A stretch of 64,000 nt of DNA from an uncultured bacterium (lineage in GTDB: Bacteria; Bacillota_I; Bacilli_A; RFN20; CAG-826), in the NCBI GenBank assembly GCA_949299335.1, contig CASGAD010000014.1, positions 183,186 to 247,185 of the forward strand, read 5' to 3'. The notes under the pieces are model-generated. The model was not told the origin of the DNA and did not search any database. It saw nothing but the letters and a program-made list of their open reading frames with translations. This document shows, one piece after another, positions 42,096 to 64,000 of this stretch; the stretch's first letter is position 1; each line of letters opens with the position of its first letter. The translations under genes were made by a program, and so were the position numbers.

Positions 42096-43086
42096 TACGC
42101 ACCATCTCTAATTCATCTTTATAAATAGATGAAGTTTTAAGGTTAACTAATCTAGTAAAAGAAATTAAGTCAGGTATACTAGTTCTCTCTTTTAAAATGA
42201 TTGTAGTCACCATTGTAACGAATAAATATCCACCATAAATAGGGAATAATATGAAAGCATCATTAATAATTAAAGGGACTAAAGATAATAAAATTGGAGG
42301 TAAAAAGCGTAAAACAACTTGATAAAGCTTGATTTCAAATCCGTCAACATTACAAAGACCAATTTTAAAAATAAGTCTGCCAACTGTATAGTGTTTTTTA
42401 TTTAATAAAGGAATTAATAAATAAGGGAATATACTACTAAAAGCTAACGAGGTCACAATTTGATAAGTTCCTTGATTATTTACGAAATTGTAAGCATCTA
42501 AATAAAATTTATCGTTAAATAAATCTGAAAAACAACCTTTATAAGTAGTGAGAAAGAAATTTAAAAGTTCAGCTTCTCCATCTTCAGTTAATCCTTTTGA
42601 CTTATCTTCATCAATATATAAACTTTTATCATATACCCCTACTTTAGTCTTATCGATTTCTCCATTATTAGAATCGTATTCAAATAAAGAATCGTCCGTT
42701 CCAATTAATAAAATTGAACTATTAAATTCTTCTATGGAAAGAGCTATCCTTGTTCCGCCGTTTTCAATATACCATTCACTACCAAAATATTTATCGGTCA
42801 AATAATAATTTTCGACAATTTCTTTATATTCTTCGATAGTTCCGTTATTTAGTTGATTATAATATTTATTCTCATCTAAAACATAAAGACCTGAGTTAAC
42901 TAAAGTTTCGTTTTTTAATAGTAAGTTTTTGTAATATGCACTATTTTGATCACCAGTAGGAGTAAAAATTGGATCAAATAAGACATAGGTCGAAAGTAAA
43001 AATAAAGCTAGAAAAAGGACAAAGTCAACGAGTGCGCACGCCACCCTTGTTGTTAATGTAGGTAAGTTAATATGTCTATTTAACAC
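42076..43086 (-). CDS. RDD-family membrane protein with a large extracytoplasmic insert
   Basis: 336 aa. GTG start with a GAGGA RBS. TM1 region is TRVACALVDFVLFLALF. C-terminal motifs are TVGRLIFKIGL and SIPDLISFTRLV. Confidence 0.65.
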   Translation of the reverse strand: MLNRHINLPTLTTRVACALVDFVLFLALFLLSTYVLFDPIFTPTGDQNSAYYKNLLLKNETLVNSGLYVLDENKYYNQLNNGTIEEYKEIVENYYLTDKYFGSEWYIENGGTRIALSIEEFNSSILLIGTDDSLFEYDSNNGEIDKTKVGVYDKSLYIDEDKSKGLTEDGEAELLNFFLTTYKGCFSDLFNDKFYLDAYNFVNNQGTYQIVTSLAFSSIFPYLLIPLLNKKHYTVGRLIFKIGLCNVDGFEIKLYQVVLRFLPPILLSLVPLIINDAFILFPIYGGYLFVTMVTTIILKERTSIPDLISFTRLVNLKTSSIYKDELEMVRNEDDEF

Positions 43087-43120
43087 AACTAAATCCTCAA
43101 GCCCTTTTAATAATATTAAA

Positions 43121-43150
43121 ATTATACATTAATCATGCCTTATATTTCAC
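43121..43150 (-). promoter_or_regulatory. Putative extended -10 promoter for the RDD-RDD-ABC operon
   Basis: The minus strand reads GTGAAA, 18 nt (the last two being TG), then TATAAT, which gives an extended -10 of TGTATAAT. It lies about 35 nt upstream of the GTG start at 43086. Confidence 0.4.
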
Positions 43151-43206
43151 TTAAAATTTTATTAAAATTTAAATAAAAGATTTAAAATATGATATTTGCA
43201 GACTTT

Positions 43207-44859
43207 TTATTTTAAATTAATAATTTTTACAAGGTATTCTTCGATTACGTCTTGAATAAATACACCTGTATCAACAAAGTTATTACCATAACTTTCAGCT
43301 ACATAATTAATTGTACCGATTGTAGTTGTTCCATTAATAAATGTAGGGTCTTTAACTTTTACATAATGATTATAATTGATAACATCATAATATTGGGCTT
43401 CATTAGGATTAAATAAAACTAATGTGTTAGAAAAAGGAAAAACTCTAATTAAATCACTATATGTGAATTCTCCTTTATCAACACTGTCTCTTACTCCACC
43501 ATAATTATGCACAGCAACACTTACTTCAACTCCATATAAATCTTTATGACTATTTATATAAGAAATAATGGCGTTACAAGCAATATCCAATAAATCTTCC
43601 TTACTTTTATATTCATTAAAATTACAAATAACTCTATTTACATCACCAATTACTTCTTTATATTTAGTGGTTAATGAATCAACGATTTCGTTAGATTCAT
43701 TAAAATCCATATTAAAAGTAGATATTGTTTCGTAGCCAATCGAATAACCTAATGTTACTTCATTATTATTTAAAGTAAAACTATATGATAAATGCGAAAG
43801 ATAATTTCCGTTTTTACCACCCTCTACATATGGTACTCCATTATACTCCCCACTTTTGCGGTAATGATCATGCCCTAAAAAGACACCATCAACTATTTCA
43901 CCTGGAGCTGAAACATCTCCGAACTTATAATCCTCATTAGTAGAATAATCATAAAAGCCCGAATCATGTGAAGCTAAAATAACTAAATCACAGCCTTTAT
44001 CCCTTAAAGATTTTGCTTCTTCTTTTATATAATCATTAGGATAGTTAAATTTAAAATTTTTAGAAACTGAAGCTGTAATATCATATCCTAAATCACTAGC
44101 TAAAGTTCCAATAACTCCAACTTTAAGATCTCCTCGACTAATAATAACTGATTTGTCCAAATATGAAGGCATTTGATTGTTAGAAGAATAAGTTAGATTA
44201 GCCGCTAAATAAGGAAAGTCAGCATCCATACAATTTTCTTTAATAACTTCTTCTCCCCAATCAAATTCATGATTACCTAAGGTCATGGCATCAAATGTGG
44301 CAATATTCATAGCTTCATTAACTATCTTACCTTTAGTTTTATTAGATTCAACTCCACCTTGCCACATATCACCAGTTGATAAAATGATTGTAAAAGGATT
44401 TTCTTCTTTTTTCTTTAATAAGTATTCAACAATTCTTGATAGCCCAGTTTGTTCACCTTCTTTATACTCGAATGAGCCATGAAAATCGTTAATAGCATAT
44501 ATATCAACCCTTGTAGTATAAGCTTCATCTTTAGGTAAAACAAAAATGTTAAAAGAACCTTTTTCATAGGCGCCTTTACTAACTTCTACTTTTACTTTTT
44601 CACTTTCACCACTTAAAACCGTACCTTCAGGAATACTTAAAGTGTAATCCGTAATTTCATTATTATTTTCATCATAGACTTTAAGTCCATCGTAATTAAT
44701 TGGGTCACCTTCATAAAAAATTCCACAAAAGTTACCTATTTTTCTAGGAAATAATTTTGTAGACTTAATTTCGTCTTTATTTTCAAAAGTACAAGCGCAT
44801 AACATTAATCCAATAAAAGACAATGTTATAACTGGTAATAATTTAGATTTTGCTTTCAT
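43207..44859 (-). CDS. 5'-nucleotidase / metallophosphoesterase lipoprotein (UshA/YfkN-like)
   Basis: 550 aa. Lipobox is LMLCACTF. Metallophosphatase motifs: INDFHGSF, GDMWQGG, GNHEFDWG, ASHDSG, GHDH. A C-terminal 5'-nucleotidase-type domain is present (NYGGVRDSV...FPFSNTLV). Confidence 0.85.
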   Translation of the reverse strand: MKAKSKLLPVITLSFIGLMLCACTFENKDEIKSTKLFPRKIGNFCGIFYEGDPINYDGLKVYDENNNEITDYTLSIPEGTVLSGESEKVKVEVSKGAYEKGSFNIFVLPKDEAYTTRVDIYAINDFHGSFEYKEGEQTGLSRIVEYLLKKKEENPFTIILSTGDMWQGGVESNKTKGKIVNEAMNIATFDAMTLGNHEFDWGEEVIKENCMDADFPYLAANLTYSSNNQMPSYLDKSVIISRGDLKVGVIGTLASDLGYDITASVSKNFKFNYPNDYIKEEAKSLRDKGCDLVILASHDSGFYDYSTNEDYKFGDVSAPGEIVDGVFLGHDHYRKSGEYNGVPYVEGGKNGNYLSHLSYSFTLNNNEVTLGYSIGYETISTFNMDFNESNEIVDSLTTKYKEVIGDVNRVICNFNEYKSKEDLLDIACNAIISYINSHKDLYGVEVSVAVHNYGGVRDSVDKGEFTYSDLIRVFPFSNTLVLFNPNEAQYYDVINYNHYVKVKDPTFINGTTTIGTINYVAESYGNNFVDTGVFIQDVIEEYLVKIINLK

Positions 44860-44885
44860 ATTCTATCCCTCTATTTTCATATTAA

Positions 44886-46331
44886 TTAAATCTCTAAACG
44901 CGATTCTCTATCTTTATCAAAAACATAAAATTTATTTTCTTTTAAATCAAATTTATTAGGACCTATTTTAACATCGATATCACTATCAATAATAACTTTA
45001 ATTGATCCTTCTATTTTTAATGGATGTTCACAGATAAGAGTTTTATCTTTACCCATCGTAATAATTTCTTTAACATCTAAAGTTAATACGCCATAAGTGT
45101 TATTAAGTTTAAAACCTTCAGGTCTAATAGCTACATATGTATCTTTAAAAACATTTATTTTTTTGCTATTAAGAATTTTTTCCTCGCCTATAAATAATCC
45201 ATTATCATTAATATTTCCTTTAAAAACGTTAACGACAGGTGTTCCTAAAAACTTAGCAACAAATAAATTTATAGGATTATTATATACTTCTTGAGGTTTA
45301 CCTACTTGAATGGCTACCCCATCTTTCATTACAACAATCTCATCACAAATCGACATAGCTTCTTCCTGATCGTGAGTTACAAATATAGTTGTAATACCAG
45401 TAGCTTTTTGAATACGTTTAATTTCTTCTCTAGTTTGTATTCTTAATCTAGCATCCAAATTACTTAAAGGTTCATCTAAAAGTAAAACTTTTGGCTTTTT
45501 AACTAAAGCTCTTGCGATTGCAACACGCTGTTGTTGCCCTCCACTTAGTTCGTTAGGTCTACGCGCTAAATATTCATCAATTTGAACTAATCTTGCAACA
45601 TCTTGAACTAAATCATCAATTTCATCTTTTGTTAACTTTCTTTTAATCTTTATAGTTTGACCTTCTTTATCAAGCCATTCAAAGTTATCATTTAACTTAA
45701 AACCTAGTTTATTAAGTCTATTTAATATTTTTTGATTACTTTGTTCTAATTTCTTAATATTAAACAAAATAACTTCATCTTTATTTTTTAAATGAATTCC
45801 CATGTTAAAGAGTTTTGTTGCCATTGAAGTAACAATATGAAACCTATAAACTAATTTTCTAACGCTTTCATCTTTAGAAATTCTATTTTTATAACTAGAC
45901 GATAAAATTATCTCAACGATTTCATCAGCATGATTTTTTAGTAACTCGATAATTTTATTGTTATAAAGAATACTATTTTCTTTCTTAGTAGTAATTATTT
46001 TTAAATTACTTAATGGATATTTAACATTATTATACACACTCATATGTGGGTAAAGAGCATAATTTTGAAATACCAATCCTATACCTCTTTTTTCTGGTGA
46101 AAGATGAGTTACATTTTCATTTCCGAACCATATTTCACCTTCGGTTGGGGTTTTAAGACCACTAACCATATAAAGTGTAGTTGATTTGCCACATCCACTT
46201 GGGCCTAATAATCCTAAAAGTTCGCCATCTTTTATAATAACGGAAACATCTTTTACAGCTATTGTATCTGGAATATTCTTTTTAGGATCGCCAGGAAAAG
46301 CTTTTGTAATATGTTTTAATTTTATTTCCAT
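44886..46331 (-). CDS. MalK/UgpC-type ABC ATPase with a ~120-aa insertion between Q-loop and signature motif
   Basis: 481 aa. Motifs are GPSGCGKST, FQNYALYPH (aa 88-96), LSGGQQQRV (from aa 262), LLLDEPLSNLD and VTHDQ. The Q-loop-to-signature distance is ~166 aa, against ~47 aa in the 696-aa paralog. Confidence 0.88.
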   Translation of the reverse strand: MEIKLKHITKAFPGDPKKNIPDTIAVKDVSVIIKDGELLGLLGPSGCGKSTTLYMVSGLKTPTEGEIWFGNENVTHLSPEKRGIGLVFQNYALYPHMSVYNNVKYPLSNLKIITTKKENSILYNNKIIELLKNHADEIVEIILSSSYKNRISKDESVRKLVYRFHIVTSMATKLFNMGIHLKNKDEVILFNIKKLEQSNQKILNRLNKLGFKLNDNFEWLDKEGQTIKIKRKLTKDEIDDLVQDVARLVQIDEYLARRPNELSGGQQQRVAIARALVKKPKVLLLDEPLSNLDARLRIQTREEIKRIQKATGITTIFVTHDQEEAMSICDEIVVMKDGVAIQVGKPQEVYNNPINLFVAKFLGTPVVNVFKGNINDNGLFIGEEKILNSKKINVFKDTYVAIRPEGFKLNNTYGVLTLDVKEIITMGKDKTLICEHPLKIEGSIKVIIDSDIDVKIGPNKFDLKENKFYVFDKDRESRLEI

Positions 46332-52009: not shown

Positions 52010-53503
52010 TTAAATAAACAATTGATCAGCTAAATAAGGAAAATCAATAAAAGCATTACGATTACCTTGATATCGAGAAACTTTCATATTTCTTTGTATT
52101 TCAAAATCATCTACTGGATCTAATTTATTCCACTCAAGTAAATCACTTAATTTTCCCATCTCTAAGCCACCAGATGGATTTTCTACTAAATCTAAATCTT
52201 CATATTGAGCATACATATAAAATATAATTCTAGCTACATCTCCTCTAAAATCGACATTGTTATTTAAATTTGGATAATAATAAGCACTTCCATTATCTGC
52301 ATATGGTTTATTTCCCCTACTAGAATTGACACTAGGAGTTGAAGCCCTTAAATTATGCATGTCTCCTTTCACTGTAGACCTATTTGAAAGGCCTTCAAAT
52401 CTACTCTGTGGCCAAACATGTTCTTTGTTCCAACTACTTGCACCATCCCATTGATATGGAAGACTTGCTCCGTTATATATACCATATAACTTACCAGGAT
52501 TAATTAAACTTTCATCGATATAGCTTAAACAATATGAAGTAGATGAATATCCATAATATTTTTTAACTTTCGTAACTCTACGAATTTCCGTTCTAAGAGC
52601 TTCACCAGTTAAAGAGCTATCAAAAGTTGAATAATACTCACTAATTGGAACTACATCATAAGTAGGTTTAGTAACACCATTTGTACCTGGTACAATAGTA
52701 TAAATTAATTCAATATCATCAGGATATTCAATGTTGCCTCTTTCTCTAAACTTTGCTATTAAGACTGTATTATGCTCTATATTGAAGCTATACGAACTAT
52801 TAGATGAAATTAACTTTTCATTACTATCATAAAATCCACTAAAAAGATATCCATTAAGAGCAGTCGCCTTTAAACTTATTTGAGTACCTTCATCGTAAAT
52901 TCCATTGCTAGTACCACTAACATTACCGCCTTCGGTCGAACTAATAGAGAACGAATATTTTGGCAAATTTAAAGCGAATTTTGCGATAATATTAGTATTT
53001 TTAGTGATATTAAAGATGTAGTTTTCTTCACTTGTTAATAATATACCATTTTCATAATATCCATCAAAATGAGAACCTTCATCACTCGTTGCAGTCAAAG
53101 AAATTTTTGTCCCTTCTTCGTAAGTTCCATTACTAGTGCCATTTACTTTACCATTTCCATTAACAACAATAGTAAAATCATAATTATGAATTATTTTTTC
53201 GCATTTAATCACTAACTCAGTATCTTCATTAAGTACAAAAAAATAATTAAAATCAGAACTAACTAATTCTTCATCTTTAAATAAACCTTTATATGTGTAA
53301 TCATCATTTTCATTAATGCCAATAGTAATCAATGTTCCTGCCGAATAAGTGCCATTAATATGAGAAACTTCCACATCGCATTCGTTTTCATTATATGTTA
53401 ATGAAAAATTAAATTTTGTATTTACATTAGCACTTCCATTTTCACAACTAATTAATGATAAACTCAATAATGATAATACTATTAATCTATTTTTAAATTT
53501 CAT
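52010..53503 (-). CDS. Endonuclease I-family extracellular nuclease lipoprotein with three InlB-B-repeat-like domains
   Basis: 497 aa. Lipobox is LSLISCENG. Three ~75-aa repeats have the pattern NGxVxGTSNGTYxEGTxISLxATxxxGxxFxGxY. C-terminal motifs are NKEHVWPQS, DMHNLRASTPSVNSSRGNKPY, GDVARIIFYMY and YQGNRNAFIDF. Confidence 0.85.
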   Translation of the reverse strand: MKFKNRLIVLSLLSLSLISCENGSANVNTKFNFSLTYNENECDVEVSHINGTYSAGTLITIGINENDDYTYKGLFKDEELVSSDFNYFFVLNEDTELVIKCEKIIHNYDFTIVVNGNGKVNGTSNGTYEEGTKISLTATSDEGSHFDGYYENGILLTSEENYIFNITKNTNIIAKFALNLPKYSFSISSTEGGNVSGTSNGIYDEGTQISLKATALNGYLFSGFYDSNEKLISSNSSYSFNIEHNTVLIAKFRERGNIEYPDDIELIYTIVPGTNGVTKPTYDVVPISEYYSTFDSSLTGEALRTEIRRVTKVKKYYGYSSTSYCLSYIDESLINPGKLYGIYNGASLPYQWDGASSWNKEHVWPQSRFEGLSNRSTVKGDMHNLRASTPSVNSSRGNKPYADNGSAYYYPNLNNNVDFRGDVARIIFYMYAQYEDLDLVENPSGGLEMGKLSDLLEWNKLDPVDDFEIQRNMKVSRYQGNRNAFIDFPYLADQLFI

Positions 53504-53574: not shown

Positions 53575-56500
53575 TTAACTATAAATAACTATACCAGTAA
53601 CGATAAACATTTGTCCTTTAAATTCGTTTGCAATTGTTATAGTAGATCCAGTTTGACCAGTTAAATCAAATGTTAAAGTTTCTACTCCTGTAGTTGTTAG
53701 GTTTTGATATTCGCCAGTAACTGTGTCACCTCTATAGGCTATAATAGATGGATTCTTTCCTGCCCATGAAATTGCATGAACTTCTATTTTACTAATAGCA
53801 ACGTCAGAACTATTTAAAGTTAAAGTTATATTTCCTGTGTATTTACTAGATCCTAACTTAACACCTAATAACCCTTTAGTATCGGTAAAGCCCTTTGTTG
53901 CTACAGCGCTTGTAACTAAAGGATAATTATCATCAACAAATAAAGCAGATAAATCAGGAGTTTCTTTTCCATAGTCATTGCTTGAAGGTTGTTCATCCTT
54001 AGTATACTCATAAATTTTAGAGTAAATTACATCACTTACTGGTGGCTCATATATACCACTCACAGTCAAAGTAATAGTATCTTTAACAGTTTCGCTAAAC
54101 GCAACAGTTATATTAACAGTTCCTTCGCCTGTAGCTTTAACAATACCATTTTCAACAGTTGCAACAGCTTCATTGTCACTTGTCCATGTTGGCTTTGTTG
54201 TTACATAACCTGGTTCAGTAACATAAGTTAATGTCTTAGTTTCATTAACTTTCATAGTGGTAGATTCTGGAATATTAATTGTAACTAAAGTAGCATCAAT
54301 TGTTTCTTCGAATAAAGTTGCTTTTGTAACAATAATACTTGCATAACTATACTTGCTATTATAGCCGTTAAAGTAAGCTTCTATATCGTATACTTTACCT
54401 TCTACTAATTCTATGGAATCAAGTATATATGCTGGTTCAATATTTACATCTGTTCCATCTAAATTTAAGATTTCATAACCATCAGCCATTCCACAAGTAG
54501 CTCTCCATTTATATAATTGGACATCAGATGTTGTTAATTCACTTGGAGATGCCTCTCCTTTTGTCTTCCAAGAATTTACTATCTCACTTGTCAATTGTGT
54601 TGCTTCATTTAAAGTTGGGCCATTACCATCAAGTTTCTTAATATCTAAAGTAGCGTCACTTCCACCAAATTGTAATAATCCATTATAAATACTTACATTT
54701 CCAGTAACTTCTAAATAATCACCTATTTTATAAGAACCATCATAATTTTTGCCTAAATAAATTAAAATTCCATTCTCTCCATCATGTAAAGTAACAGATT
54801 GTTTATTAGTGGCGGCAACTACCCCGCGTACAGTGTAGGTTCGGCCTTCTTCTTCAATTTGTCCAATAGAATAATCAACTTCATTAACAGTAATATTACA
54901 TGTAGCTTTAGAATTTGGTTTGTCTTTTAATGAGACGGTAATTGTTGCATTACCTTTAGCAACACCAGTTACTACACCATCATTAACACTAGCAACATTA
55001 GAATCGCTTGTTTCATAAAGCAATTCATAATCCTTTACACCAATAACAGAAGGGTTCAAATTAAATGTTTCTCCAACATTAATAGCTTTTTCAGTTGCCG
55101 CAAGTGTAATAGTAGGATTATCACTTTCACTAATTTTAATTTCTAATGGTTCGCTAGTTAATGATCCTATTTTACCTACTACATGAGCTGTTCCGGCACT
55201 AATTCCATAAATTGTATCATTTTCAAGTCTAATAAATTCATTTCCATCAACAATTGAATAAGTTACTGTTCCAGTAGCATTACTTGGGGTCAACGTATAT
55301 GAAAGTTTTGTAGATTCTCCAATTAATAAATCATTATCTAAAGCACTAATTGAAATAGCAGTTGCTTCAACACTCGAATTATCTTTTGTAATAATTGTTC
55401 CATCCCCAAAGTAAGAGAATTGAGGGCCATTGTGCCAAGATAATGCAGTTGTAATTGTAACTTTATCTCCAGCGGTTAAATCAAGTGCTTCAAAATCACT
55501 TACTAATTTGTCAATATTTACATCATACATTTTAGAACTATTTCCATCAGTTCTTAAAATTGTTGATGTATTGCCAATTTTAAATTCAATATTAGCAGCG
55601 TTAGTAGTTGCAGGTTCACCACTAACATATGTTGCGTCAAATGTATAAACATTTCCTGTATCCAAAATATCTATATTTTTATAATCTTCTTCAGTTAAAG
55701 AAATTGGACTAATAGTAGAAATTGTTGTATCGAGTTTTTTTGCGTAAACCTCTTCGATTCTACCACCATTCTCATAAGAACTGAGTTGAATAGCACCTCC
55801 ACCATTAGTATTTAATGCAACTTTTGCATGAATTTCAACAAAATCACCAGCTTTAAAACTACCATCAACTAAAGCTGTGTCACCATCATTTGCACTCCAA
55901 TTATAAATAAATATGCCACCGGTAGCATCAGCAAAGTATGCGCTAGTTCCAGATGTCAAAGTAATCTTACCTTTTAAAGTTACAAAGTCTCCGACACTAA
56001 TATCGCCATTTTTAATCTTTGCGACCGTATCGCCTTCAACTGTAGAAGCGTCATTAATTGTAACTTTTAACGAAGCCTCATAGTTTTTATTTTCACTTGT
56101 ATATGTTGCTTTTAAGGTTACTTCACCTGGTACTAATGCTTTAATTGTTTTCCCATTAATTTCAACTGAAGATTCTGGAGTTGCTGATAAACTAAATCCA
56201 CTATCTAAACTAGTATTATTGAACTTAACATCAATCTCAAAAGTTGATCCTACAATAATTTCTCCACTAGTAACTAAATTTAATGTTAAACCCTCTGTAG
56301 TACTACTTTTGTCTTTTAGCGTAACAATTAAAGTAACATCTGTTCCAGGCATTTTAAAACTATATAGACCATCTACTGCAGTTAACTTAGTTGTATTGAC
56401 AGTTACTTTATCTACTTCTTTTTCAGAATTAGTAACATTTACCCTAAATGAAACATCTTCGCCTTCATCGTAACCTTCGCTTTTTAAACCCTCAATAGTA

Positions 56501-56637
56501 AAATCACTACTAGTGTTATAATTAACTTTATATTTAGTTGTAACATTGGTGTTATTACCACATGAAGTTATACTAAAGGTTCCTATACCTAAAAAGGCTG
56601 ATAAAACGAAAATTGGTACAATCTTTCTTTTTTTCAT
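53575..56637 (-). CDS. Giant surface lipoprotein with four Big_2 domains and OB-like domains
   Basis: The ATG at 56635-56637 (MKKRKIVPIFVLSAFLGIGTFSITSCGNN) has AAGGAG 7 nt upstream. The track start at 56643 is GTG. One Big_2 example is INVGETFNLNPSVIGVKDYELLYETSDSNVASVNDGVVTGVAKGNATITV. One OB-like example is YTVRGVVAATNKQSVTLHDGENGILIYLG...GDYLEVTGNVSIYNGLLQF. Confidence 0.75.
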   Translation of the reverse strand: MKKRKIVPIFVLSAFLGIGTFSITSCGNNTNVTTKYKVNYNTSSDFTIEGLKSEGYDEGEDVSFRVNVTNSEKEVDKVTVNTTKLTAVDGLYSFKMPGTDVTLIVTLKDKSSTTEGLTLNLVTSGEIIVGSTFEIDVKFNNTSLDSGFSLSATPESSVEINGKTIKALVPGEVTLKATYTSENKNYEASLKVTINDASTVEGDTVAKIKNGDISVGDFVTLKGKITLTSGTSAYFADATGGIFIYNWSANDGDTALVDGSFKAGDFVEIHAKVALNTNGGGAIQLSSYENGGRIEEVYAKKLDTTISTISPISLTEEDYKNIDILDTGNVYTFDATYVSGEPATTNAANIEFKIGNTSTILRTDGNSSKMYDVNIDKLVSDFEALDLTAGDKVTITTALSWHNGPQFSYFGDGTIITKDNSSVEATAISISALDNDLLIGESTKLSYTLTPSNATGTVTYSIVDGNEFIRLENDTIYGISAGTAHVVGKIGSLTSEPLEIKISESDNPTITLAATEKAINVGETFNLNPSVIGVKDYELLYETSDSNVASVNDGVVTGVAKGNATITVSLKDKPNSKATCNITVNEVDYSIGQIEEEGRTYTVRGVVAATNKQSVTLHDGENGILIYLGKNYDGSYKIGDYLEVTGNVSIYNGLLQFGGSDATLDIKKLDGNGPTLNEATQLTSEIVNSWKTKGEASPSELTTSDVQLYKWRATCGMADGYEILNLDGTDVNIEPAYILDSIELVEGKVYDIEAYFNGYNSKYSYASIIVTKATLFEETIDATLVTINIPESTTMKVNETKTLTYVTEPGYVTTKPTWTSDNEAVATVENGIVKATGEGTVNITVAFSETVKDTITLTVSGIYEPPVSDVIYSKIYEYTKDEQPSSNDYGKETPDLSALFVDDNYPLVTSAVATKGFTDTKGLLGVKLGSSKYTGNITLTLNSSDVAISKIEVHAISWAGKNPSIIAYRGDTVTGEYQNLTTTGVETLTFDLTGQTGSTITIANEFKGQMFIVTGIVIYS

Positions 56638-56656
56638 AAACACTCCTTAAATATAT

Positions 56657-57595
56657 CTAATTTGAAGAATATAGTTTATTATCTTCTAAAGAATTTAATT
56701 CACGTATATACTCCATTAACCCCTCTTTATAAATTACCTCTTTCTTATTATCAAAGTAGTCATTAACAAATAAAGCTACAACTAAATAAACAAGTGAGGT
56801 TGCCCCTACTATTGAACCTAAGAAACTTAAAAAGTATCCTAAAGGTACATTTTGATATCCATTATATTCATAAAGGACATCTTTAGCGTTTACTAAATAG
56901 TAATCGCTACTTGAATTAGCATCTCCTCTAAATGTGTAATAGACTTCATTATCTATCACCTGACTTTTAATAATTCTATGAATAATTAACTGGTTATCTT
57001 TATTTTTATACCCGTAAATTCCATACATTTTTATTGAATAACTATCTTTTACTTTATTTAATCCAATTAATGAAAATTGCTTAATTTGATTATCCAATGA
57101 ATTAGTAACTAAGTATTCGTTACTTTCATTTTTACTATCCATTGATCCTGTTGCAATTGTTACATAAGTCACATCATTAATTGTATAAATAGAATTAGTT
57201 ACTTTAGAATAAATATTAAAAACTAAAACCCCAGTAAATAGAGCAATAAATAATACATCAAAGAATATTCTTAGCCCTTTAATTAACTTATTTTTATTTT
57301 TCCTAAGAACATAGACATTTTTTTCTTTAATGATTGGATGTTCTTCTGGAGTTAATCTTTCTTCACTATACCCATCTTTGCTATCAAAATATTGATAAAT
57401 AATTAATCTTGAATTAACGTTTACTTCTTCTTTAGTAAGCTTAATATCTTTAGTGTAATCGGAAATCATTTTATTTCTATTTCCCATTTTTTTAACACTA
57501 TAAAGGTATTCTTCTCTCATCACAAAAATAAGTAAACCTAAAACAATGGTTAACATTATAATTGCAAGTATAACAAGTAACGTTTCTTTACTCAT
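56657..57595 (-). CDS. Signal peptidase I, archaeal/SipW type (S26B), with an N-terminal two-TM extension
   Basis: 312 aa. The catalytic-region motifs are collinear with B. subtilis SipW: ATGSMDS (Ser), LIIHRIIK (His), TFRGDANSSSDY (Asp box). The C-terminal TM is PLGYFLSFLGSIVGATSLVYLVVALFV. Confidence 0.7.
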   Translation of the reverse strand: MSKETLLVILAIIMLTIVLGLLIFVMREEYLYSVKKMGNRNKMISDYTKDIKLTKEEVNVNSRLIIYQYFDSKDGYSEERLTPEEHPIIKEKNVYVLRKNKNKLIKGLRIFFDVLFIALFTGVLVFNIYSKVTNSIYTINDVTYVTIATGSMDSKNESNEYLVTNSLDNQIKQFSLIGLNKVKDSYSIKMYGIYGYKNKDNQLIIHRIIKSQVIDNEVYYTFRGDANSSSDYYLVNAKDVLYEYNGYQNVPLGYFLSFLGSIVGATSLVYLVVALFVNDYFDNKKEVIYKEGLMEYIRELNSLEDNKLYSSN

Positions 57596-57609
57596 AGCAA
57601 AAAGTCTTT

Positions 57610-57792
57610 CTAAAGAGTAGATTCATCAAAAGTATTATCTTCAATAGAATTATTCTCTTCTTCATCAAAGCCTATTTCAGGAATGACTTCTTTTTCGACA
57701 GTTTCTGGCGCTACGCCAGAAACATGCCGAATAGAATATCCAATTCCTACAATAGCTGAAATTATTAGTATAGGAATTAATAGTTTTTTCAT
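57610..57792 (-). CDS. Small exported protein: hydrophobic N-terminus with shared VGxGY..H.SG motif plus an acidic tail
   Basis: 60 aa: MKKLLIPILIISAIVGIGYSIRHVSGVAPE...FDEEENNSIEDNTFDESTL. Its N-terminal motif matches that of the upstream 1019-aa protein (8 of 12 positions). ATG start, no clear SD. Confidence 0.5.
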   Translation of the reverse strand: MKKLLIPILIISAIVGIGYSIRHVSGVAPETVEKEVIPEIGFDEEENNSIEDNTFDESTL

Positions 57793-57795
57793 AGA

Positions 57796-60700
57796 TTATT
57801 TATATAAGGCTATATTAAGAATGACTATTCTCTTTCCAGATGTGATTTTTAGAACATTTGAGTTAATATCATCAAAAGTATAAGTTACCACTGAATTTTT
57901 TGCTTCGGTAATTGTTTTTGATTGATCGTTTATAGATAAATAATTTCTCGAAGTATCCCAAACAGCAAATTTAATCTCTACTTTTTTCACTGTTTCATTA
58001 AGGGCTAATGTAAAGGAGCCAGCATCACCACTTTTTCCCATTTTAAGACCAGGATTTCCACTACTTGGTTTATAGACAGCAGATGGTTCAACAAGTTTAC
58101 TATTTTCTTCATCTATCATCTCTTGATTATCAGTTTTTTCTTTTAAATATTCAATTAAACCTTCAGCATTCAATGAACTATTAACGTAACCGTCAGTATC
58201 AATTGAATCATTTAATTCGCCAAAATTAATCTTTCCATAACTAACTGTAGTACTAGCGATGATATTTAAAGTAATTACATCAGAATAAATAGGATTATCC
58301 CCAATGGTTGCAAGTTTAAGAGTTACTGTTCCAGCTACATCACCAGCAGTAATTTCTCCATTTTCAACTGTAACTAAATCACCACCTTCAATTATTTCAA
58401 CATTAACATCTTGGCTAGCGCCAAATGGCTTAACTTCATAAGAAAGTGATATTGTTTCGCCAGTTTCGATATCATATGTATCAACTCCATTTAAATCTAT
58501 TGACTCTGGAGCGAGTTCCTTTACATTCACTTTTGTCGCATAAATATTTAAATAATTATCACCAGCAAAGTTTTTAATATATCCTTCAAATTCATATGCT
58601 TTGCCATCAACAAAACCATCAGTGTAAATTTCTGTATTGGAGATTCCAATTTGTTTTTCAGTACCTTCAATAAATAAATTAACGAATTCCCCATTTTTGG
58701 TACACACTCCCATGCCTTTAACAAATTCATGTTTTGCACCTATATCAGAACTCTCTAAATAGTCCTTATCAACAATTACTGGATTAGTTGGTAAAGTTAC
58801 TGGGTCAATTCCTTCAAGTTTTGAGATTTCACTAACCTTAATCTCGATAATGCCGTTATATGTTGTTTTTTCACCTTTAACAGCAACTACATCATTAATA
58901 TTTATACCATCATCGATAATTCCAACATATTGATAACAATAAATATAATTTGTTCCATCAGAAATCACCGCCATTCCATCTTTTTCACTTATTGCATGGA
59001 CTGTCCCGGCAACTGAAACTATTGTAGAATCGACTTGATTTATAGCTTCATCAATTGTAGAAACATTTAACTCTGTTTTTATAGTAACTTCATTAGTTCC
59101 TTCAACAACATTGATAGTATATAGCCCTTCCTCTTCAGTTAAATCTGTGCCATTATAGGAAACAGTTGTTAATTTATAAAAATCATTTGGTGTAACACTA
59201 AGTTTTAAAATAGTGCCTTCATTAACTTCTGTACCTTCAACATATTCTTCTCCACTTTCATAATATAGGTTATAAATGCAATTAGTTGCTGAAGTAGTTA
59301 CAACTCCTTTTTTAGCGACTTCTTTTTCTTTAAATGTTACTTCTACAACATTATCACCTTTTACTGCTTCAAATGTAACTACTTGATTCTCAACAGTTAA
59401 AGGGGTTTCACTATTTAATAACACTTGGTCAATTTCATAGTTATCGTAAGGCGTAATGCTAATGGTAACTTGGTCGCCTGCCATATATAATTTTCTATCA
59501 TATGTTATGTTACCTTGTTCTTCATTATATTTAACAGAAACTAAAGCAACAGAATCATAATACTTATCATAGTCAACAAATTCACCGACATAATTTTCAC
59601 CATCTTTTTCGCCAGTCAATGCATATAAATTTAGTGAACTATCAAAATTTGTCAAAGAAATATCAACTGTTTGAGATTTTTTATCAAATATTCCAGTTTC
59701 TTTGTCTAAAGTGCCAGTTGAAAGGATGATATTATCATAATCACTTGTAACTAAATTAAATGTATACAAATTTGCTCCATCCATTGCAGCATCGTATGAA
59801 ACAAATGTTATTTCTTGTCCAGGGAAATCTCCGTTATTGGTTTCATCATTCCAAGCATATACATAAGCCTTTGAGCCCATATAATTAAGACCGTTTAAGT
59901 CTTTAAAAAACATGGTTGTAGCTATTTTATAATCGAAAGTATAAGTTGCATCTTTTTCAAAGGTATAAGTTTTTGCATAAACTCTACCGATAGCTCGCCC
60001 ATTACTCTCATCTAACTCAATAGTTTCTTCAGTAGTTTTATCACCAACTTTCTTATAAATAGTTAATTCATTGTTATTTAATAATTGATTGTCACCAGTT
60101 ACTTCAAGAGTAATTTCATGATCTCCAGCAGTAACTTTACCATTACTCATGCCTTCAATTGAGAAAGTAGATCCTTCCACTGTAGGAATAGTAATTTCAC
60201 CCGTTTCATCTAATGATGGAGGAGTAACTTCATTACCTACTTCAAATTTAAAAGTAAATTTTACACCATTTAAAGCTGCAATTAATGCATCGTAATTAGC
60301 TTCTTGCTCTTCAACAGTTAATCCCTTCCAAGCTATTTCAGGATTTTGATTACCTAATTCATCAGACCAACTAAATGTCAAAGCTACAGCATAACCACTA
60401 ACTTTACAAGTTGAATCTAACCATGTTTTATAATCAATAATTTGTGTTTCTGGCAATTTAACATACTTATAAAAGTCATCTTCGCTGCTAAGCTCTCCAC
60501 TATCATCTTTTGCAATAGTTGTGATTTTTAAATTTGGAATATATTCTTCAGCGATTCCATCATAATTAGTTAAATCATAAGGGTCTCTTGTACTACCACT
60601 GTTAGCAAAAGCCTTAACAGTATACTTTACAGTTAAATCTTCATCCGCAACACCATCAAAGTTAATAGTATTGTCCCCGTCTAATGGGGTTACTTCAATA

Positions 60701-60855
60701 TAACCAAAATTCTTATCAACTTCAGTTTCAATCCCAGGCGTTAACTCTGATTCGGTTCCTACAAATCCTCCACTAATGTGCCACATTGCATAGCCAGTAC
60801 CTACTAAAGCACCAACACTAAGAACGCCTAATAATGTTTTTGCAGTTTTTTTCAT
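57796..60855 (-). CDS. Giant surface protein (non-lipoprotein signal) with InlB-B-repeat-like, OB-like and Big_2 domains
   Basis: The ATG at 60853-60855 (MKKTAKTLLGVLSVGALVGTGYAMWHISGG) has GGGGAG 5 nt upstream. The track start at 60861 is GTG. No lipobox Cys. The OB-like segment is VSVAGTVHAISEKDGMAVISDGTNYIYCY...VVAVKGEKTTYNGIIEI. The Big_2 domain is GETISLSYEVKPFGASQDVNVEIIEGGDLVTVENGEITAGDVAGTVTLKL. Confidence 0.75.
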   Translation of the reverse strand: MKKTAKTLLGVLSVGALVGTGYAMWHISGGFVGTESELTPGIETEVDKNFGYIEVTPLDGDNTINFDGVADEDLTVKYTVKAFANSGSTRDPYDLTNYDGIAEEYIPNLKITTIAKDDSGELSSEDDFYKYVKLPETQIIDYKTWLDSTCKVSGYAVALTFSWSDELGNQNPEIAWKGLTVEEQEANYDALIAALNGVKFTFKFEVGNEVTPPSLDETGEITIPTVEGSTFSIEGMSNGKVTAGDHEITLEVTGDNQLLNNNELTIYKKVGDKTTEETIELDESNGRAIGRVYAKTYTFEKDATYTFDYKIATTMFFKDLNGLNYMGSKAYVYAWNDETNNGDFPGQEITFVSYDAAMDGANLYTFNLVTSDYDNIILSTGTLDKETGIFDKKSQTVDISLTNFDSSLNLYALTGEKDGENYVGEFVDYDKYYDSVALVSVKYNEEQGNITYDRKLYMAGDQVTISITPYDNYEIDQVLLNSETPLTVENQVVTFEAVKGDNVVEVTFKEKEVAKKGVVTTSATNCIYNLYYESGEEYVEGTEVNEGTILKLSVTPNDFYKLTTVSYNGTDLTEEEGLYTINVVEGTNEVTIKTELNVSTIDEAINQVDSTIVSVAGTVHAISEKDGMAVISDGTNYIYCYQYVGIIDDGININDVVAVKGEKTTYNGIIEIKVSEISKLEGIDPVTLPTNPVIVDKDYLESSDIGAKHEFVKGMGVCTKNGEFVNLFIEGTEKQIGISNTEIYTDGFVDGKAYEFEGYIKNFAGDNYLNIYATKVNVKELAPESIDLNGVDTYDIETGETISLSYEVKPFGASQDVNVEIIEGGDLVTVENGEITAGDVAGTVTLKLATIGDNPIYSDVITLNIIASTTVSYGKINFGELNDSIDTDGYVNSSLNAEGLIEYLKEKTDNQEMIDEENSKLVEPSAVYKPSSGNPGLKMGKSGDAGSFTLALNETVKKVEIKFAVWDTSRNYLSINDQSKTITEAKNSVVTYTFDDINSNVLKITSGKRIVILNIALYK

Positions 60856-60910
60856 AATCACTCCCCATATGTCATTATCTTGAGTATTTTTCGTTACGAA
60901 TAAATACTAA

Positions 60911-60945
60911 AAAAGAGAAAAAAAGCCGCCTAAAAAGGCGACTTT
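60911..60945 (-). terminator. Intrinsic terminator, minus-strand oriented
   Basis: Minus-strand RNA is AAAGUCGCC-UUUUUA-GGCGGCUUU followed by UUUUCUCUUUUUU. The single imperfect position is a G-U wobble on the minus strand but a C-A mismatch on the plus strand, which fixes the orientation. Confidence 0.75.
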
Positions 60946-60995: not shown

Positions 60996-61204
60996 GGAAT
61001 ATTACGTCTGAGCGTTAATGAAAAGGAATCTTTTTTTCTCATAAATTTATTTTACTCTAGTAAGTTATGTTTTTAAAGTTAAATTAAGTAATCAAGTGTA
61101 AATATTTCCTAAAGCTTATTTTTTAAAAGTTATAAATAGTTTCGATTAAATCATGGTTTTAATGCAGATTTACTTATTAATCACTAAATAAATCTTATAA
61201 AAAG

Positions 61205-62131
61205 TTATTTAACTAATAATGATTTAACTTCTTTAAGATACTCACTTTTATTTAAATATATTTTATTAGAGTTTTTATCTACCATCATGATATTAATTAA
61301 TGCATCATGTAATGGAGATTCTTTTTTAGATAAAATCATATATGAATATGAGATTAAAGGAATAATAAATAAAGATAATATTCCTAAAATAAACTCAATA
61401 ACATATATAAATAAAAATCTAAAGATAAATTCTTTAGTCGATAGACTAACTCCATTAGAATTAATTAATCCTACTTTAAATATTTTCATAGATAGAGTGG
61501 CGTGATCACGCTTAAAAATTAAAGGAAATACTAAGTAAATTATTAAGCCACTAATAAGTAAAGAGAATGATATTAAAGATAAATTAATTAAAACTATTTT
61601 TTGAGTAATACTAGTATATAAAGGTAAAGAATATAAAGTAGGCAAAGCGTAACCTAGATATTCCTCTTTATAAAAATCTAAATAAACACTATCTTTAATG
61701 TTATTTTCACTCCTAATAATTTCATCTTCTACTTTAATAAATAAGTTAACTTCATTTTCTTTAGCGTTTAATTTTCTAGTTTCATACTCTTTTAAATAAT
61801 CACTACTTGTATTAATGGTTTCGTTAGTAAATTTATAAAACTTAGTGATTGCTACTTCTAACGCTTCACTTTTTTCATTAATAGTTAAAGAATCATCATT
61901 TTCAAGTTTAACTAATATTTCTTCGTTATCAATAAATAAGTTAGACTCATTTTTTAAACTAATTAAAGATTCGTTATCATTTTGAAAACTAGATGAAGAA
62001 ACATATGTTCCTAGACTAATTAAACTAAGAGTCAAGGTTAAAAAGATTAGAAAGAAAATATCTAATAAACTAATAAAGGTACGCTTAATTAAGCCTACTC
62101 TTTTATAATGAATCACTTTTTCTATCATCAA
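61205..62131 (-). CDS. RDD-family membrane protein with a large extracytoplasmic insert
   Basis: 308 aa. TM1 region is LIKRTFISLLDIFFLIFL. About 130 hydrophilic aa follow. C-terminal TMs carry ATLSMKIFKVGLIN and SPLHDALINIMMVD. It overlaps the upstream paralog by 29 nt. Confidence 0.6.
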   Translation of the reverse strand: MMIEKVIHYKRVGLIKRTFISLLDIFFLIFLTLTLSLISLGTYVSSSSFQNDNESLISLKNESNLFIDNEEILVKLENDDSLTINEKSEALEVAITKFYKFTNETINTSSDYLKEYETRKLNAKENEVNLFIKVEDEIIRSENNIKDSVYLDFYKEEYLGYALPTLYSLPLYTSITQKIVLINLSLISFSLLISGLIIYLVFPLIFKRDHATLSMKIFKVGLINSNGVSLSTKEFIFRFLFIYVIEFILGILSLFIIPLISYSYMILSKKESPLHDALINIMMVDKNSNKIYLNKSEYLKEVKSLLVK

Positions 62132-63248
62132 TAATCACCTTAGTTTCATCTAGTAAAATTGCTTTACTTATCTTTTCTTCAAAAGTTTGATTTAATGGTT
62201 TAATTAAACATAGTAATAAAGAAAAAATATATAGTAAAACTGTAAAAAGTAAAATAAATAATAAGTAATAAACATTATTAATTTCATTAAATAAAATTAA
62301 GCTCATACTATTGCCTAAACTTAAGTAACCACTAAATAAAATAGTGGAATAAAAAATAACTACTCTAATTAAATTAAGTGAAGTTAAAGAAATTATTTTA
62401 CTTTTATTTTTAAATTCATAACTAGATTTAAAAACAATCATTGAGATAGTTTTTTTACTTTTTAAACATAATGGAAGCAAAATAAAATATAAAAAGTAAC
62501 TAATTAAATAACTAACTGATAAAGTAATTAAATTATAATTTTTTCCTACATTTGCATAGTTTTCTAAATTTTTTAAGGAGTTTATATAAGTTATATTATT
62601 AGTTATTAAATCATTAGAGGCTTCACTAAAAGTTTTTTGAATTAGCTCTAAAACATCTTCTTTTAGCTCTTCATTAGAGTTAGTTTCATTAAAAATATTG
62701 TCTCCAATTTTTAAAGCTACATCTTCTTTTAATAAGTAATAACTATTATCAAAAGTAAAATAATCGCTATTAATAAATGATGTAATATAACTATCTGGAT
62801 CAAAGTTAGCACTATTTAAATATATATCTAAATTATTTAATTTATAGTCATGATAATAAAGATATATGGCATCATTTTCTTTAGTTAAATTAATTACTTT
62901 AAAAAAATCTGTACCTGGAAAATTATCTTCACTTAAAGAAGATTTTACTAGCATCATTAAGTAAGATTCATTATTAAAATTAGAAAGATGAGAAGCTTCT
63001 ATAACACTTTCATTTTCTTCATAACTTTCATAAAATAAAGCGGAGTTTTCTTTCACATTAGGTAAGTTATTTGTTATGAAGTTATTAGAAAAAATATTTA
63101 TGATTGTCGTAAACACGACAATCATAAAAAAGTCTAATAAATACGATATTACCTTCTTTTTTACGGAAGTTACTTCGTAAGAAAAAGATAAATTACTCTT
63201 ATTAGATTCTATCGATTGTGAGATTGATTCCTTCTTCATTTGTTCCAT
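62103..63248 (-). CDS. RDD-like membrane protein with a large extracytoplasmic insert
   Basis: 381 aa. TM1 region is KKKVISYLLDFFMIVVF (Lys replaces the usual Arg). About 190 hydrophilic aa follow, then three TMs. It has the same architecture as 42076..43086. Confidence 0.55.
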   Translation of the reverse strand: MEQMKKESISQSIESNKSNLSFSYEVTSVKKKVISYLLDFFMIVVFTTIINIFSNNFITNNLPNVKENSALFYESYEENESVIEASHLSNFNNESYLMMLVKSSLSEDNFPGTDFFKVINLTKENDAIYLYYHDYKLNNLDIYLNSANFDPDSYITSFINSDYFTFDNSYYLLKEDVALKIGDNIFNETNSNEELKEDVLELIQKTFSEASNDLITNNITYINSLKNLENYANVGKNYNLITLSVSYLISYFLYFILLPLCLKSKKTISMIVFKSSYEFKNKSKIISLTSLNLIRVVIFYSTILFSGYLSLGNSMSLILFNEINNVYYLLFILLFTVLLYIFSLLLCLIKPLNQTFEEKISKAILLDETKVIIDDRKSDSL

Positions 63249-64000
63249 TTATTGTGATTACGTAATTCATTTCACTACCATCATTAAATTTGCCATTAGT
63301 AAAGTATTTACTTTGATTAGTAGCACTAAAAGCATAACCATCAGATTTATTTTTAGTATATAAATCGTTGTCATTAGCACCTCTTTTACCATAAAGAGTC
63401 TCATTTTGAGAACTAACTAATTCAATTAAAGCTTCACCATCTTTATTTCTAGAAGTATCGTTTGGTGAATTGGTGTGACTAATAACTGTCCAAGAGGCAG
63501 CGGTATCAGTACCACTATATCCAGGAATTGAAGTTAAATTTGTATCTGTGATATAACTACCAAATTCATAGCTTATTTGTCCAAAGAAATTCATTGAAGC
63601 GTTAAAGATAGCGAGTCTAGCATCTACATGATATATACGTAAACCACTTTCTTTAAAAAAGTATGGATAAGAGCTAGTTATTCCTCCATATTTACTTTCA
63701 CTATCTTGCTTAAATAATCCTTCTGGAGTGTAATATTCTACTATTATATATTCACTAAATGCTGAACCATTATAAGTTCCACTAGGAAGAATGATTGAAT
63801 CGTAACTAGTTGCAAATGGTTTTAAAGTTAATGTTTCTTTTTCATCAATAACCATTGCTTTAGTCCAGCCTAAAGCGTATTTAGAAAAGGCATCATGATC
63901 TCCGATATTTAAATCCATCATATCAAGTTGGCCAGTATATGAATATTGGTTATTATTAGCATAATCATAGTAATCATCTAATCCTAGCATATGCCCTGTT
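63202..64000 (-). CDS. Zinc metalloprotease-like protein (M6/InhA-like), N-terminal part outside the window
   Basis: The frame is open to the window edge (codons ...T-G-H before MLGLDDYYDY). The sequence GHMLGLDDYYD looks like the tail of an HExxH..GL.D.Y zincin motif. Later segments MMDLNIGDHDAFSKYALGW and GLRIYHVDARL resemble M6-domain landmarks. This is recalled from memory, not searched. Confidence 0.45.
   Translation of the reverse strand, partial: TGHMLGLDDYYDYANNNQYSYTGQLDMMDLNIGDHDAFSKYALGWTKAMVIDEKETLTLKPFATSYDSIILPSGTYNGSAFSEYIIVEYYTPEGLFKQDSESKYGGITSSYPYFFKESGLRIYHVDARLAIFNASMNFFGQISYEFGSYITDTNLTSIPGYSGTDTAASWTVISHTNSPNDTSRNKDGEALIELVSSQNETLYGKRGANDNDLYTKNKSDGYAFSATNQSKYFTNGKFNDGSEMNYVITINGTNEEGINLTIDRI

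Follow-up and report, generated by a model that had tools for sequence, protein, structure and literature searches.

A three-gene cassette (56657–60861, minus strand) was analyzed in a 64,000-nucleotide stretch of contig CASGAD010000014.1, from an uncultured bacterium of the Bacilli order RFN20. This whole stretch is referred to as the window. The cassette encodes a large exported protein of 1019 amino acids (aa), a small protein of 60 aa and a 312-aa SipW-type signal peptidase. We propose that the peptidase is dedicated to processing the motif-bearing proteins of its own operon, and put the probability of this reading at roughly 0.7. A motif of glycines and aromatic residues ends the hydrophobic N-terminus of the putative substrates. 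This motif is coupled to the peptidase family wherever examined, in dozens of related genomes, and the catalytic residues of the enzyme are conserved across that family.

Genomic coupling of motif and peptidase

Motif occurrences were counted in the window and 31 related loci, the latter taken from the contexts of homologous peptidases and from a scan of one genome per species. This sample comprised 410 kb and 1130 six-frame open reading frames (ORFs) of at least 40 aa. The strict pattern required G.[GA][FYVILMA][ASCG].W in the first 48 residues, with Lys or Arg within the first 10. It was matched 55 times, and all 55 matches lay on the peptidase strand no more than 3 kb from the peptidase gene. 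As these loci were centred on the peptidase, look-ups starting from the substrate were also made. Proteins similar to the large N-terminal region adjoined an N-extended SipW-like peptidase in all cases (6/6, L032–L037). Tandem arrays of 2–7 motif proteins lie upstream of the peptidase in L033–L037, and one motif protein lies on each side of it in L032. The co-occurrence in related genomes that the original prediction proposed as a check was observed, for the core of the motif, from both directions.

Three peptidase clades were found. They are mutually ~30–37% identical and have unrelated flanking genes, and the adjacency is retained in each. Clade 1, the window's type, shows the order large (700–1040 aa), small (47–70 aa), peptidase in 13 distinct loci with differing flanking genes. 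Clade 2 (L018–L031, e.g. L020:4918–9936) has the order A, N-extended SipW-like peptidase (325–356 aa), B, C, with A of ~190–275 aa, B of ~210–465 aa and C of ~610–1160 aa. The N-termini of A and B end in VGSGFSAWYF or GVGFASWVF, and those of C in SFGMSYFYF or similar. Comparison by hhalign showed proteins A and B to be homologous to each other (99%, E=1.5e-18), and both belong to the N-terminal domain family of the large protein described below. Clades 1 and 2 occur together in at least four metagenome-assembled genomes (MAGs; CAJJXG, CALVXH, CASERQ and CAUWDL). Clade 3 (L033–L037, e.g. L035:9001–18627) carries the tandem arrays with their peptidase on Erysipelotrichaceae-like contigs (GC 32–42%). 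The window's cassette thus forms a single branch within a broader cassette family.

Downstream of the clade-3 cassettes, conserved genes encode a polytopic membrane protein of ~600 aa (598), a protein of ~420 aa (421), an ABC ATPase, a permease (12TM_1) and an exported protein of ~800 aa. Searching the window and clades 1–2 with the cluster-specific proteins among these (all but the ABC ATPase; tblastn) gave no homologues, with only generic ABC-ATPase similarity (~24–35% identity). The clade-2 contigs L019–L023 (GC 35–38%) belong to 'cleanbin' MAGs that bear the labels Prevotella sp., Sodaliphilus sp., Lachnospiraceae, Bacteroides uniformis and Faecalibacterium prausnitzii. Their gene content and composition suggest mis-binning or mislabelling, not true occurrence in those taxa. 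Two genes are split, the large gene at L008:183–2371 into ORFs of 185 and 540 aa and the A gene at L027:4679–5520 into ORFs of 59 and 254 aa. Both splits are frameshifts, from assembly error or pseudogenisation.

The peptidase

We accept the 312-aa protein (56657–57595, minus strand) as a divergent, active-looking signal peptidase of the S26B type (endoplasmic reticulum (ER)/archaeal, SipW/SEC11-like); judged by its scores against the curated cut-offs, it is a relative and not an equivalog. The landmarks named in the original prediction were located at TGSM 149–152 (GSM 150–152), HRI 206–208 and RGDAN..SD 223–231, together with a C-terminal transmembrane helix. A database search returned 39 homologues of 266–347 aa, the named one being a 'hypothetical protein' from a Mollicutes MAG. 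The peptidase and 14 aligned homologues, the most distant of them 35% identical, agree throughout at M152, H206, R207, G224, D225, N227 and D231; S151 is present in ≥90% of the 14. The GSM box is present in the clade-3 peptidases too. The general-base position is occupied by His, not Lys, within the H-R box.

A PDB search with a profile of the peptidase alignment placed SEC11C and SEC11A on top, over the HR...GDxN..D box. The profile was needed, as phmmer with the single sequence gave chance matches only. In the alignment, the G224/D225/N227/D231 box pairs with SEC11 KGDNNxxDD, and H206-R207 with the HR of SEC11C/SEC11A. We take H206, D225 and D231 to correspond to SEC11 His96, Asp116 and Asp122, as counted on the SEC11A sequence. 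An AlphaFold2 (AF2) model of the peptidase had a mean predicted local distance difference test score (pLDDT) of 81.7. Its first Foldseek match was human SEC11A (7p2p_A; E=8.6e-4, probability 1.00, TM-score 0.56 on target), followed by human SEC11C (7p2q_A; E=1.1e-3, probability 1.00). Next in rank came two further proteins of the S24/S26 fold, the C-terminal domain of the lambda repressor and SpsB.

The peptidase has two hydrophobic helices at the N-terminus and one at the C-terminus. The unusual N-terminal extension of ~130 aa with two transmembrane segments was reproduced in the model as aa 1–132 (57200..57595, minus strand). It comprises an extra transmembrane helix, a ~45-aa four-stranded β-domain and a second transmembrane helix. 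The modelled layout is helix 3–38, β 51–97, helix 102–132, catalytic domain and helices 250–310. On this model, the second N-terminal helix corresponds to the single N-terminal anchor of SipW; the extra helix and β-unit are, to our knowledge, not part of SipW. The extension is kept in all three clades. The segment after helix 1 is rich in Lys/Arg. Under the positive-inside rule this would put the β-unit and the C-terminal helix in the cytoplasm, with the catalytic domain on the outer side of the membrane. The β-unit (aa 51–97) is encoded at 57305–57445, between the first two transmembrane helices. Foldseek with the peptidase model as a whole also listed many Tudor/chromo-type barrels (53BP1; probability 0.99, TM-score ~0.38 on target).

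Signal motif and predicted cleavage

Both motif sequences from which the original prediction started, VGTGYAMWHISG and VGIGYSIRHVSG, were confirmed in the window's large/small pair. By pattern search they appear as GTGYAMWHISG in the large protein (60769..60801, minus strand) and GIGYSIRHVSG in the small protein (57715..57747, minus strand). The pattern G.GY[AS]..H[IV]SG was found nowhere else in the six frames of the 64-kb window. The shared 12-residue motif was borne out as a feature of both proteins that is unique in the window, but its H-[IV]-S-G tail is restricted to the window's own lineage (window, L007 and partly L008). What extends to the whole family is the core L-[VI]-G-x-G-[FY]-[AS]-x-W-x-[IVF]. 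A logo of 198 non-identical N-termini read L-[VI]-G(74%)-[TV]-G(96%)-[FY](79%)-[AS](93%)-[AST](87%)-W(90%)-x-[IVF](91%), with the Trp at median residue 26.

With the cut placed after [AS], the site becomes G-[FY]-A↓x-W, in which position −3 is small, P1 is Ala/Ser and both P2 and P2' are aromatic. On this assumed position, taken by analogy to TasA, the large protein would be cut at G-Y-A↓M-W and the small one at G-Y-S↓I-R. The predicted signal peptide of the large protein would then be aa 1–23 (MKKTAKTLLGVLSVGALVGTGYA; 60787..60855, minus strand), based on its sequence, the logo and the TasA analogy. The SipW site of TasA is T-W-A↓A-F, in which P2 is Trp and P2' is Phe (PMC10269814). The predicted signal ends resemble that site in their glycines, aromatic P2, Ala/Ser P1 and aromatic P2'. 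E. coli LepB handles the TasA site very poorly, and verified LepB substrates have no aromatic P2' residues (PMC10269814). Poor cleavage of aromatic P2/P2' sites by LepB, a Ser/Lys enzyme of the P-type, would explain why these substrates travel with their own peptidase.

The proposed processing would run as follows. The large and small proteins would be exported by Sec, each with a signal peptide ending G-x-G-[FY]-[AS]↓x-[W/R]. The membrane-embedded peptidase would cut between the small residue and x-Trp via a Ser151-His206-Asp231 active site. This cut would free the large protein from its N-terminal membrane tether and leave the new N-terminus MWHISGGFVG....

The window contains 11 proteins with a lipobox, matching the number of lipoproteins in the original prediction, and all of them lack the motif. 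A GH3-family glycosidase (1047 aa, 16645–19788, minus strand) has an ordinary hydrophobic N-terminus …SFMASIIAAENAAQ with neither lipobox nor motif. This exported or anchored protein would need another processing route or remain uncleaved.

The large protein and its N-terminal domain

The large gene occupies ORF 57796–60861 (minus strand). The ATG at 60855 (MKKTAK...), preceded by a GGGGAG Shine-Dalgarno sequence, is most likely its real start and gives 1019 aa (57796..60855), the length named in the original prediction. All three ORFs lie at the coordinates given there. The protein consists of the signal, a ~190-aa N-terminal domain, immunoglobulin (Ig)-like/InlB-B-repeat/OB-like domains and a C-terminal domain. 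Pfam gave a weak Flg_new_2 match only. The C-terminal ~420 aa share 25% identity with the Big_2 lipoprotein encoded downstream. A C-terminal transmembrane segment, lipobox or LPXTG motif was not seen in the sequence.

The N-terminal domain (aa ~24–215; 60211..60786, minus strand) belongs to an unannotated family of ~200-aa secreted proteins. A HMMER profile of the first ~230 residues, run against 1.84 billion representatives, found 198 proteins at E≤0.001. Of these, 48 reach E≤1e-30; most are ~630–1065 aa long and a few are shorter (apparently truncated), with the domain always N-terminal. The weaker matches listed are mostly 190–310 aa, many of them aligned along the whole domain. Word-index searching with the large N-terminus gave just 2, then 13 proteins, and the full HMMER scan revealed the family. 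An hhalign comparison of the domain with 88 short proteins gave 99.8% probability (E=8.9e-29, 188 columns). The domain always stands directly behind a motif-type signal. No Pfam, NCBIfam or PDB sequence match was obtained for the family, nor any Pfam match for 10 short members. Named members are 'hypothetical proteins' from Bacilli or Erysipelotrichaceae MAGs. Behind the domain, 45 large members carry Big_2 (17/45), InlB-B-repeat (Flg_new_2; 14/45), OB fold (3/45) and occasionally CBM26. The Ig-like, InlB-B-repeat and OB-like content suggests an adhesin or binding protein.

Residues 1–230 of the large protein were modelled with AF2 from an alignment of 13 sequences (mean pLDDT 68). The core reached pLDDT 66–92, residues 1–37 stayed below 50, and residues 24–37 were modelled as disordered. 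Foldseek against the PDB gave nothing at E≤0.001, the best match having E=0.045 and a TM-score below 0.3. The PapD-type chaperones and HAP2 domain 3 at the top of this search (E 0.045 or worse, TM-score <0.3) are not taken as evidence. No TasA entry was among the 50 Foldseek matches listed for this model of 13-sequence depth and mean pLDDT 68, and PDB profile searches with alignments A2, A3, A4 and A8 gave no TasA either. The TasA/camelysin fold, with which the original prediction proposed to compare the N-terminus of the large protein, was not recovered. A relationship of the substrates to TasA/camelysin (Peptidase_M73) was rejected, with Pfam, NCBIfam, the four PDB profile searches and Foldseek all negative.

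The small protein and possible strand donation

The small protein (57610..57792, minus strand) consists of a signal peptide of the same type, a segment copying the large protein's linker and first-strand motif (E-V-I-P-E-I-G) and an acidic tail. Its gene is an intact 47–70-aa ORF between the large and peptidase genes in every clade-1 locus (13). Beyond the signal tail, the small protein also copies the first β-strand of the large protein, which the original prediction had missed. Both proteins share an E-x-x-P-x-[IV] motif ~15 residues past the Trp. In the AF2 model of the large protein this motif coincides with the first β-strand, 40–46 (PGIETEV). Lineage variants are paired between the two proteins, PFEI with EYEI or DYEI (L001, L009) and DPII with EPII (L016). 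Within-locus similarity of the mature segments was significant in L016 and L017 (z=5.4–5.8), with z=2.7–2.8 in L008 and L009. Seven of the 11 loci gave no significant similarity, the window among them (z=1.6). Given the shared motif, the co-varying variants and the significant similarity in some loci, the small protein is best described as paralogous to the large protein's first ~45 residues.

TapA donates its N-terminal strand to TasA (PMC10151520). A donor-strand fibre or complex, in which the freed N-terminal segment of a large protein inserts as a β-strand into its neighbour, would add to dedicated processing; we regard it as a tentative and rather doubtful addition. The small protein would then serve as a TapA-like strand donor of minimal size, with a priming, capping or chaperone role in assembly. 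Its shared signal and strand motif, the z scores of the four loci above and the modelled disorder of large residues 24–37 favour such an exchange. So do related cassettes with 2–7 tandem paralogous subunits of ~200–290 aa plus one ~900-aa protein, resembling sipW-bsaA-bsaB-bsaC and tapA-sipW-tasA. The lack of a TasA, camelysin or pilin fold match and the non-significant similarity in most loci speak against it, and the window has one full-length subunit-type protein only. A wider scheme, which we consider unlikely, makes the cassette a minimal surface-assembly system. In it, the peptidase would unmask subunit N-termini, strand insertion would follow, the 60-aa protein would act as a stand-alone donor (the smallest known TapA-like initiator or cap) and the β-domain would couple processing to an intracellular signal. 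Its hosts would be uncultured gut Bacilli including peptidoglycan-deficient, sortase-less lineages.

Points against the proposal and alternative readings

Several results weigh against dedicated processing by a SipW-type enzyme. The NCBIfam SipW model NF046067 matched the peptidase at E=4.6e-14 and 52.4 bits, below its curated cut-off of 190. The archaeal sigpep_I model TIGR02228 matched at E=2.2e-11 and 43.8 bits, below its cut-off of 51.85, and a Pfam scan of the peptidase gave no S24/S26 match. The original assignment to SipW/S26B is thus upheld by the E-values, catalytic residues and SEC11 fold, and falls short of the curated cut-offs and of Pfam. A curated hidden Markov model (HMM) exists for SipW-cognate signal peptides, a class we take to be NCBIfam TIGR04088. 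It gave 0 matches among 11 isolated N-termini (the window's two, clade-2 and short-family; E up to 10) and 0 among 12 full-length family proteins (2 searched at E up to 10, 10 at E up to 1), HMMER filters being liable to drop such short, weak signal-peptide matches. The expected likeness of the N-termini to that model was not obtained. Arg22 of the window's small protein (57727–57729) occupies the predicted P2' position, where 90% of the family has Trp. The coupling was counted in loci centred on the peptidase that span just 6–10 kb per side. The hydrophobic N-terminal segment of 16–19 residues could also be an uncleaved anchor.

The small protein of L007 (L007:5800–5985) likewise has Arg at predicted P2'. 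The H-V-S-G beside the Arg of the window's small protein resembles the large protein of the same lineage. Arg at P2' in these two small proteins could reflect concerted evolution of the two N-termini or a relaxed P2' requirement.

It is quite unlikely, in our judgement, that the 312-aa enzyme is the general signal peptidase I of a reduced genome lacking LepB, with a fortuitous neighbourhood. Many reduced Bacilli and Mollicutes have few or no recognisable signal peptidases, which would suit this role. No LepB-type gene was found within the 64-kb window, and the active site of the peptidase is complete in sequence. A general role is weakened because the four or more genomes with clades 1 and 2 hold two paralogous N-extended peptidases, each beside its own motif proteins, and because the other exported proteins of the window are motif-free. 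Retention of the adjacency across three divergent clades with unrelated flanks also speaks against a general role. Improbable to a still greater degree is that the proteins are uncleaved anchors with G-x-G-F-A-x-W as a docking or interface motif and the peptidase-like protein as an assembly factor, as with streptococcal SipA/LepA: Trp and aromatics ending a hydrophobic stretch suit a membrane interface, the large protein has no other visible anchor after cleavage and the extra transmembrane helix and β-domain of the peptidase suggest a role beyond catalysis, but the reading is weakened because the catalytic Ser, His and Asp are kept across all clades, unexpectedly for a non-catalytic chaperone, and small −1/−3 residues fit the signal-peptidase rule in >90% of sequences.

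Comparison with known systems

The processing unit proposed for the window is closest in kind to tapA-sipW-tasA of Bacillus subtilis. Both have a Ser/His peptidase with a C-terminal transmembrane helix in an operon with putative exported substrates. In both, one partner is similar to the other's N-terminal segment, TapA donating an N-terminal strand to TasA. The peptidase described here differs from SipW in being ~120 residues longer N-terminally (transmembrane helix and β-domain) and in scoring 52 bits against the 190 of the equivalog. Its putative substrates, from an unannotated family, lack detectable sequence or fold similarity to TasA/camelysin. Chief among them is the multidomain protein of 1019 aa, whose partner has just 60 aa, and the genes are arranged substrate-substrate-peptidase. 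The unit is carried by MAGs of uncultured low-GC Bacilli/'Mollicutes', not by B. subtilis.

The Clostridium perfringens cassette sipW-bsaA-bsaB-bsaC is comparable to this unit (PMC11580942). Its SipW-type peptidase with two small paralogous and one large secreted protein closely resembles the clade-2 cassettes. It differs in two features that were not detected here, the remote homology of BsaA and BsaB to TasA and the VWA domain of BsaC. Eukaryotic SEC11 and archaeal signal peptidase I share the Ser-His-Asp arrangement and the HR...GDxN..D box, and SEC11 gave the best structural matches. SEC11 is a general enzyme in a multi-subunit complex, whereas the enzyme here stands alone, shares its operon with a few putative substrates and bears another N-terminal extension. 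Streptococcal pilus-island SipA/LepA is likewise a signal-peptidase homologue within, and specific for, a surface-structure gene cluster. It is S26A-like without catalytic residues, in contrast to the full S26B set kept by the peptidase here. By analogy, the unit would work like tapA-sipW-tasA and sipW-bsaABC without being a member of either, given a sub-threshold peptidase of other architecture, a new substrate family in which no TasA fold was detected and an unmatched signal model.

The orders RFN20, RF39 and ML615J-28 are predicted to mix walled and peptidoglycan-deficient families, and RFN20 and ML615J-28 are without sortases (PMC10868615). A full-text literature search found no paper linking SipW with Mollicutes or Erysipelotrichaceae, in line with the original claim that such a cassette is undescribed in this kind of organism.

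Operon layout and neighbouring genes

The window has a GC content of 27–32% and reads well with genetic code 11. The large gene, small gene (57610–57792), peptidase gene and Big_2 lipoprotein gene (53575–56643, 1022 aa) form a tight minus-strand operon, as their intergenic gaps are just 3, 14 and 13 bp. The lipoprotein (Pfam Big_2, E=1.6e-11) is paralogous to the large protein's C-terminal half. An endonuclease-I lipoprotein (52010–53503, minus strand) is fifth in transcription order, after the Big_2 lipoprotein. In the order large-small-peptidase-Big_2 originally proposed, the first three genes are conserved in the 13 clade-1 loci, but the lipoprotein is missing from its position in most related loci and was rejected as a cassette member. 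It is co-transcribed with the cassette here; large-small-peptidase alone is the conserved unit.

A promoter-like box (TTTAAA-17-TAAAAT, 61049–61077, minus strand; a consensus match only) lies upstream of the large gene. It is kept upstream of the orthologue in L007, the closest relative of the window locus. Between this box and the large start codon, the 5' leader contains a terminator-like hairpin (60922–60945, minus strand; 10-bp stem, 5 GC pairs, T-run), which could be an attenuator or a stray terminator. The hairpin is not conserved in L007. Rfam searches of the whole window and the 5' leader gave nothing at gathering score, and the sub-threshold matches were due to this hairpin.

Pairs of RDD-family membrane proteins occur beside a 5'-nucleotidase-type lipoprotein and an ABC ATPase at 61205–63248 and 40935–46331 of the window and at L005:2566–10783. 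Endonuclease I is also present near the pair in L005. These pairs and their neighbours suggest that a module for scavenging nucleic acids or nucleosides recurs near the cassette within the window's lineage. At the window edge, a 262-aa ORF (63202–63990, minus strand) is preceded by a 381-aa multi-transmembrane protein (62103–63248); neither has a Pfam match.

Significance

A handful of Bacillota (SipW with TasA, TapA, CalY and Bsa) and archaea are known to have ER-type signal peptidases dedicated to substrates of their own, and these systems build biofilm fibres. The cassette family described here represents a distinct, unannotated branch of the SipW idea, in uncultured reduced-genome gut Bacilli/'Mollicutes' and Erysipelotrichaceae-like MAGs. 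New in it are the domain family of the substrates, without a relative in Pfam, NCBIfam or the PDB, the longer architecture of the peptidase and the tiny partner protein. The predicted aromatic P2/P2' pattern provides independent comparative support for the idea that such sites need an ER-type enzyme. Members are labelled 'hypothetical protein' at present, and their strict pairing with a signal peptidase offers a simple annotation rule. This pairing flags candidate surface or adhesion proteins in organisms without sortases and, in some lineages, without a cell wall.

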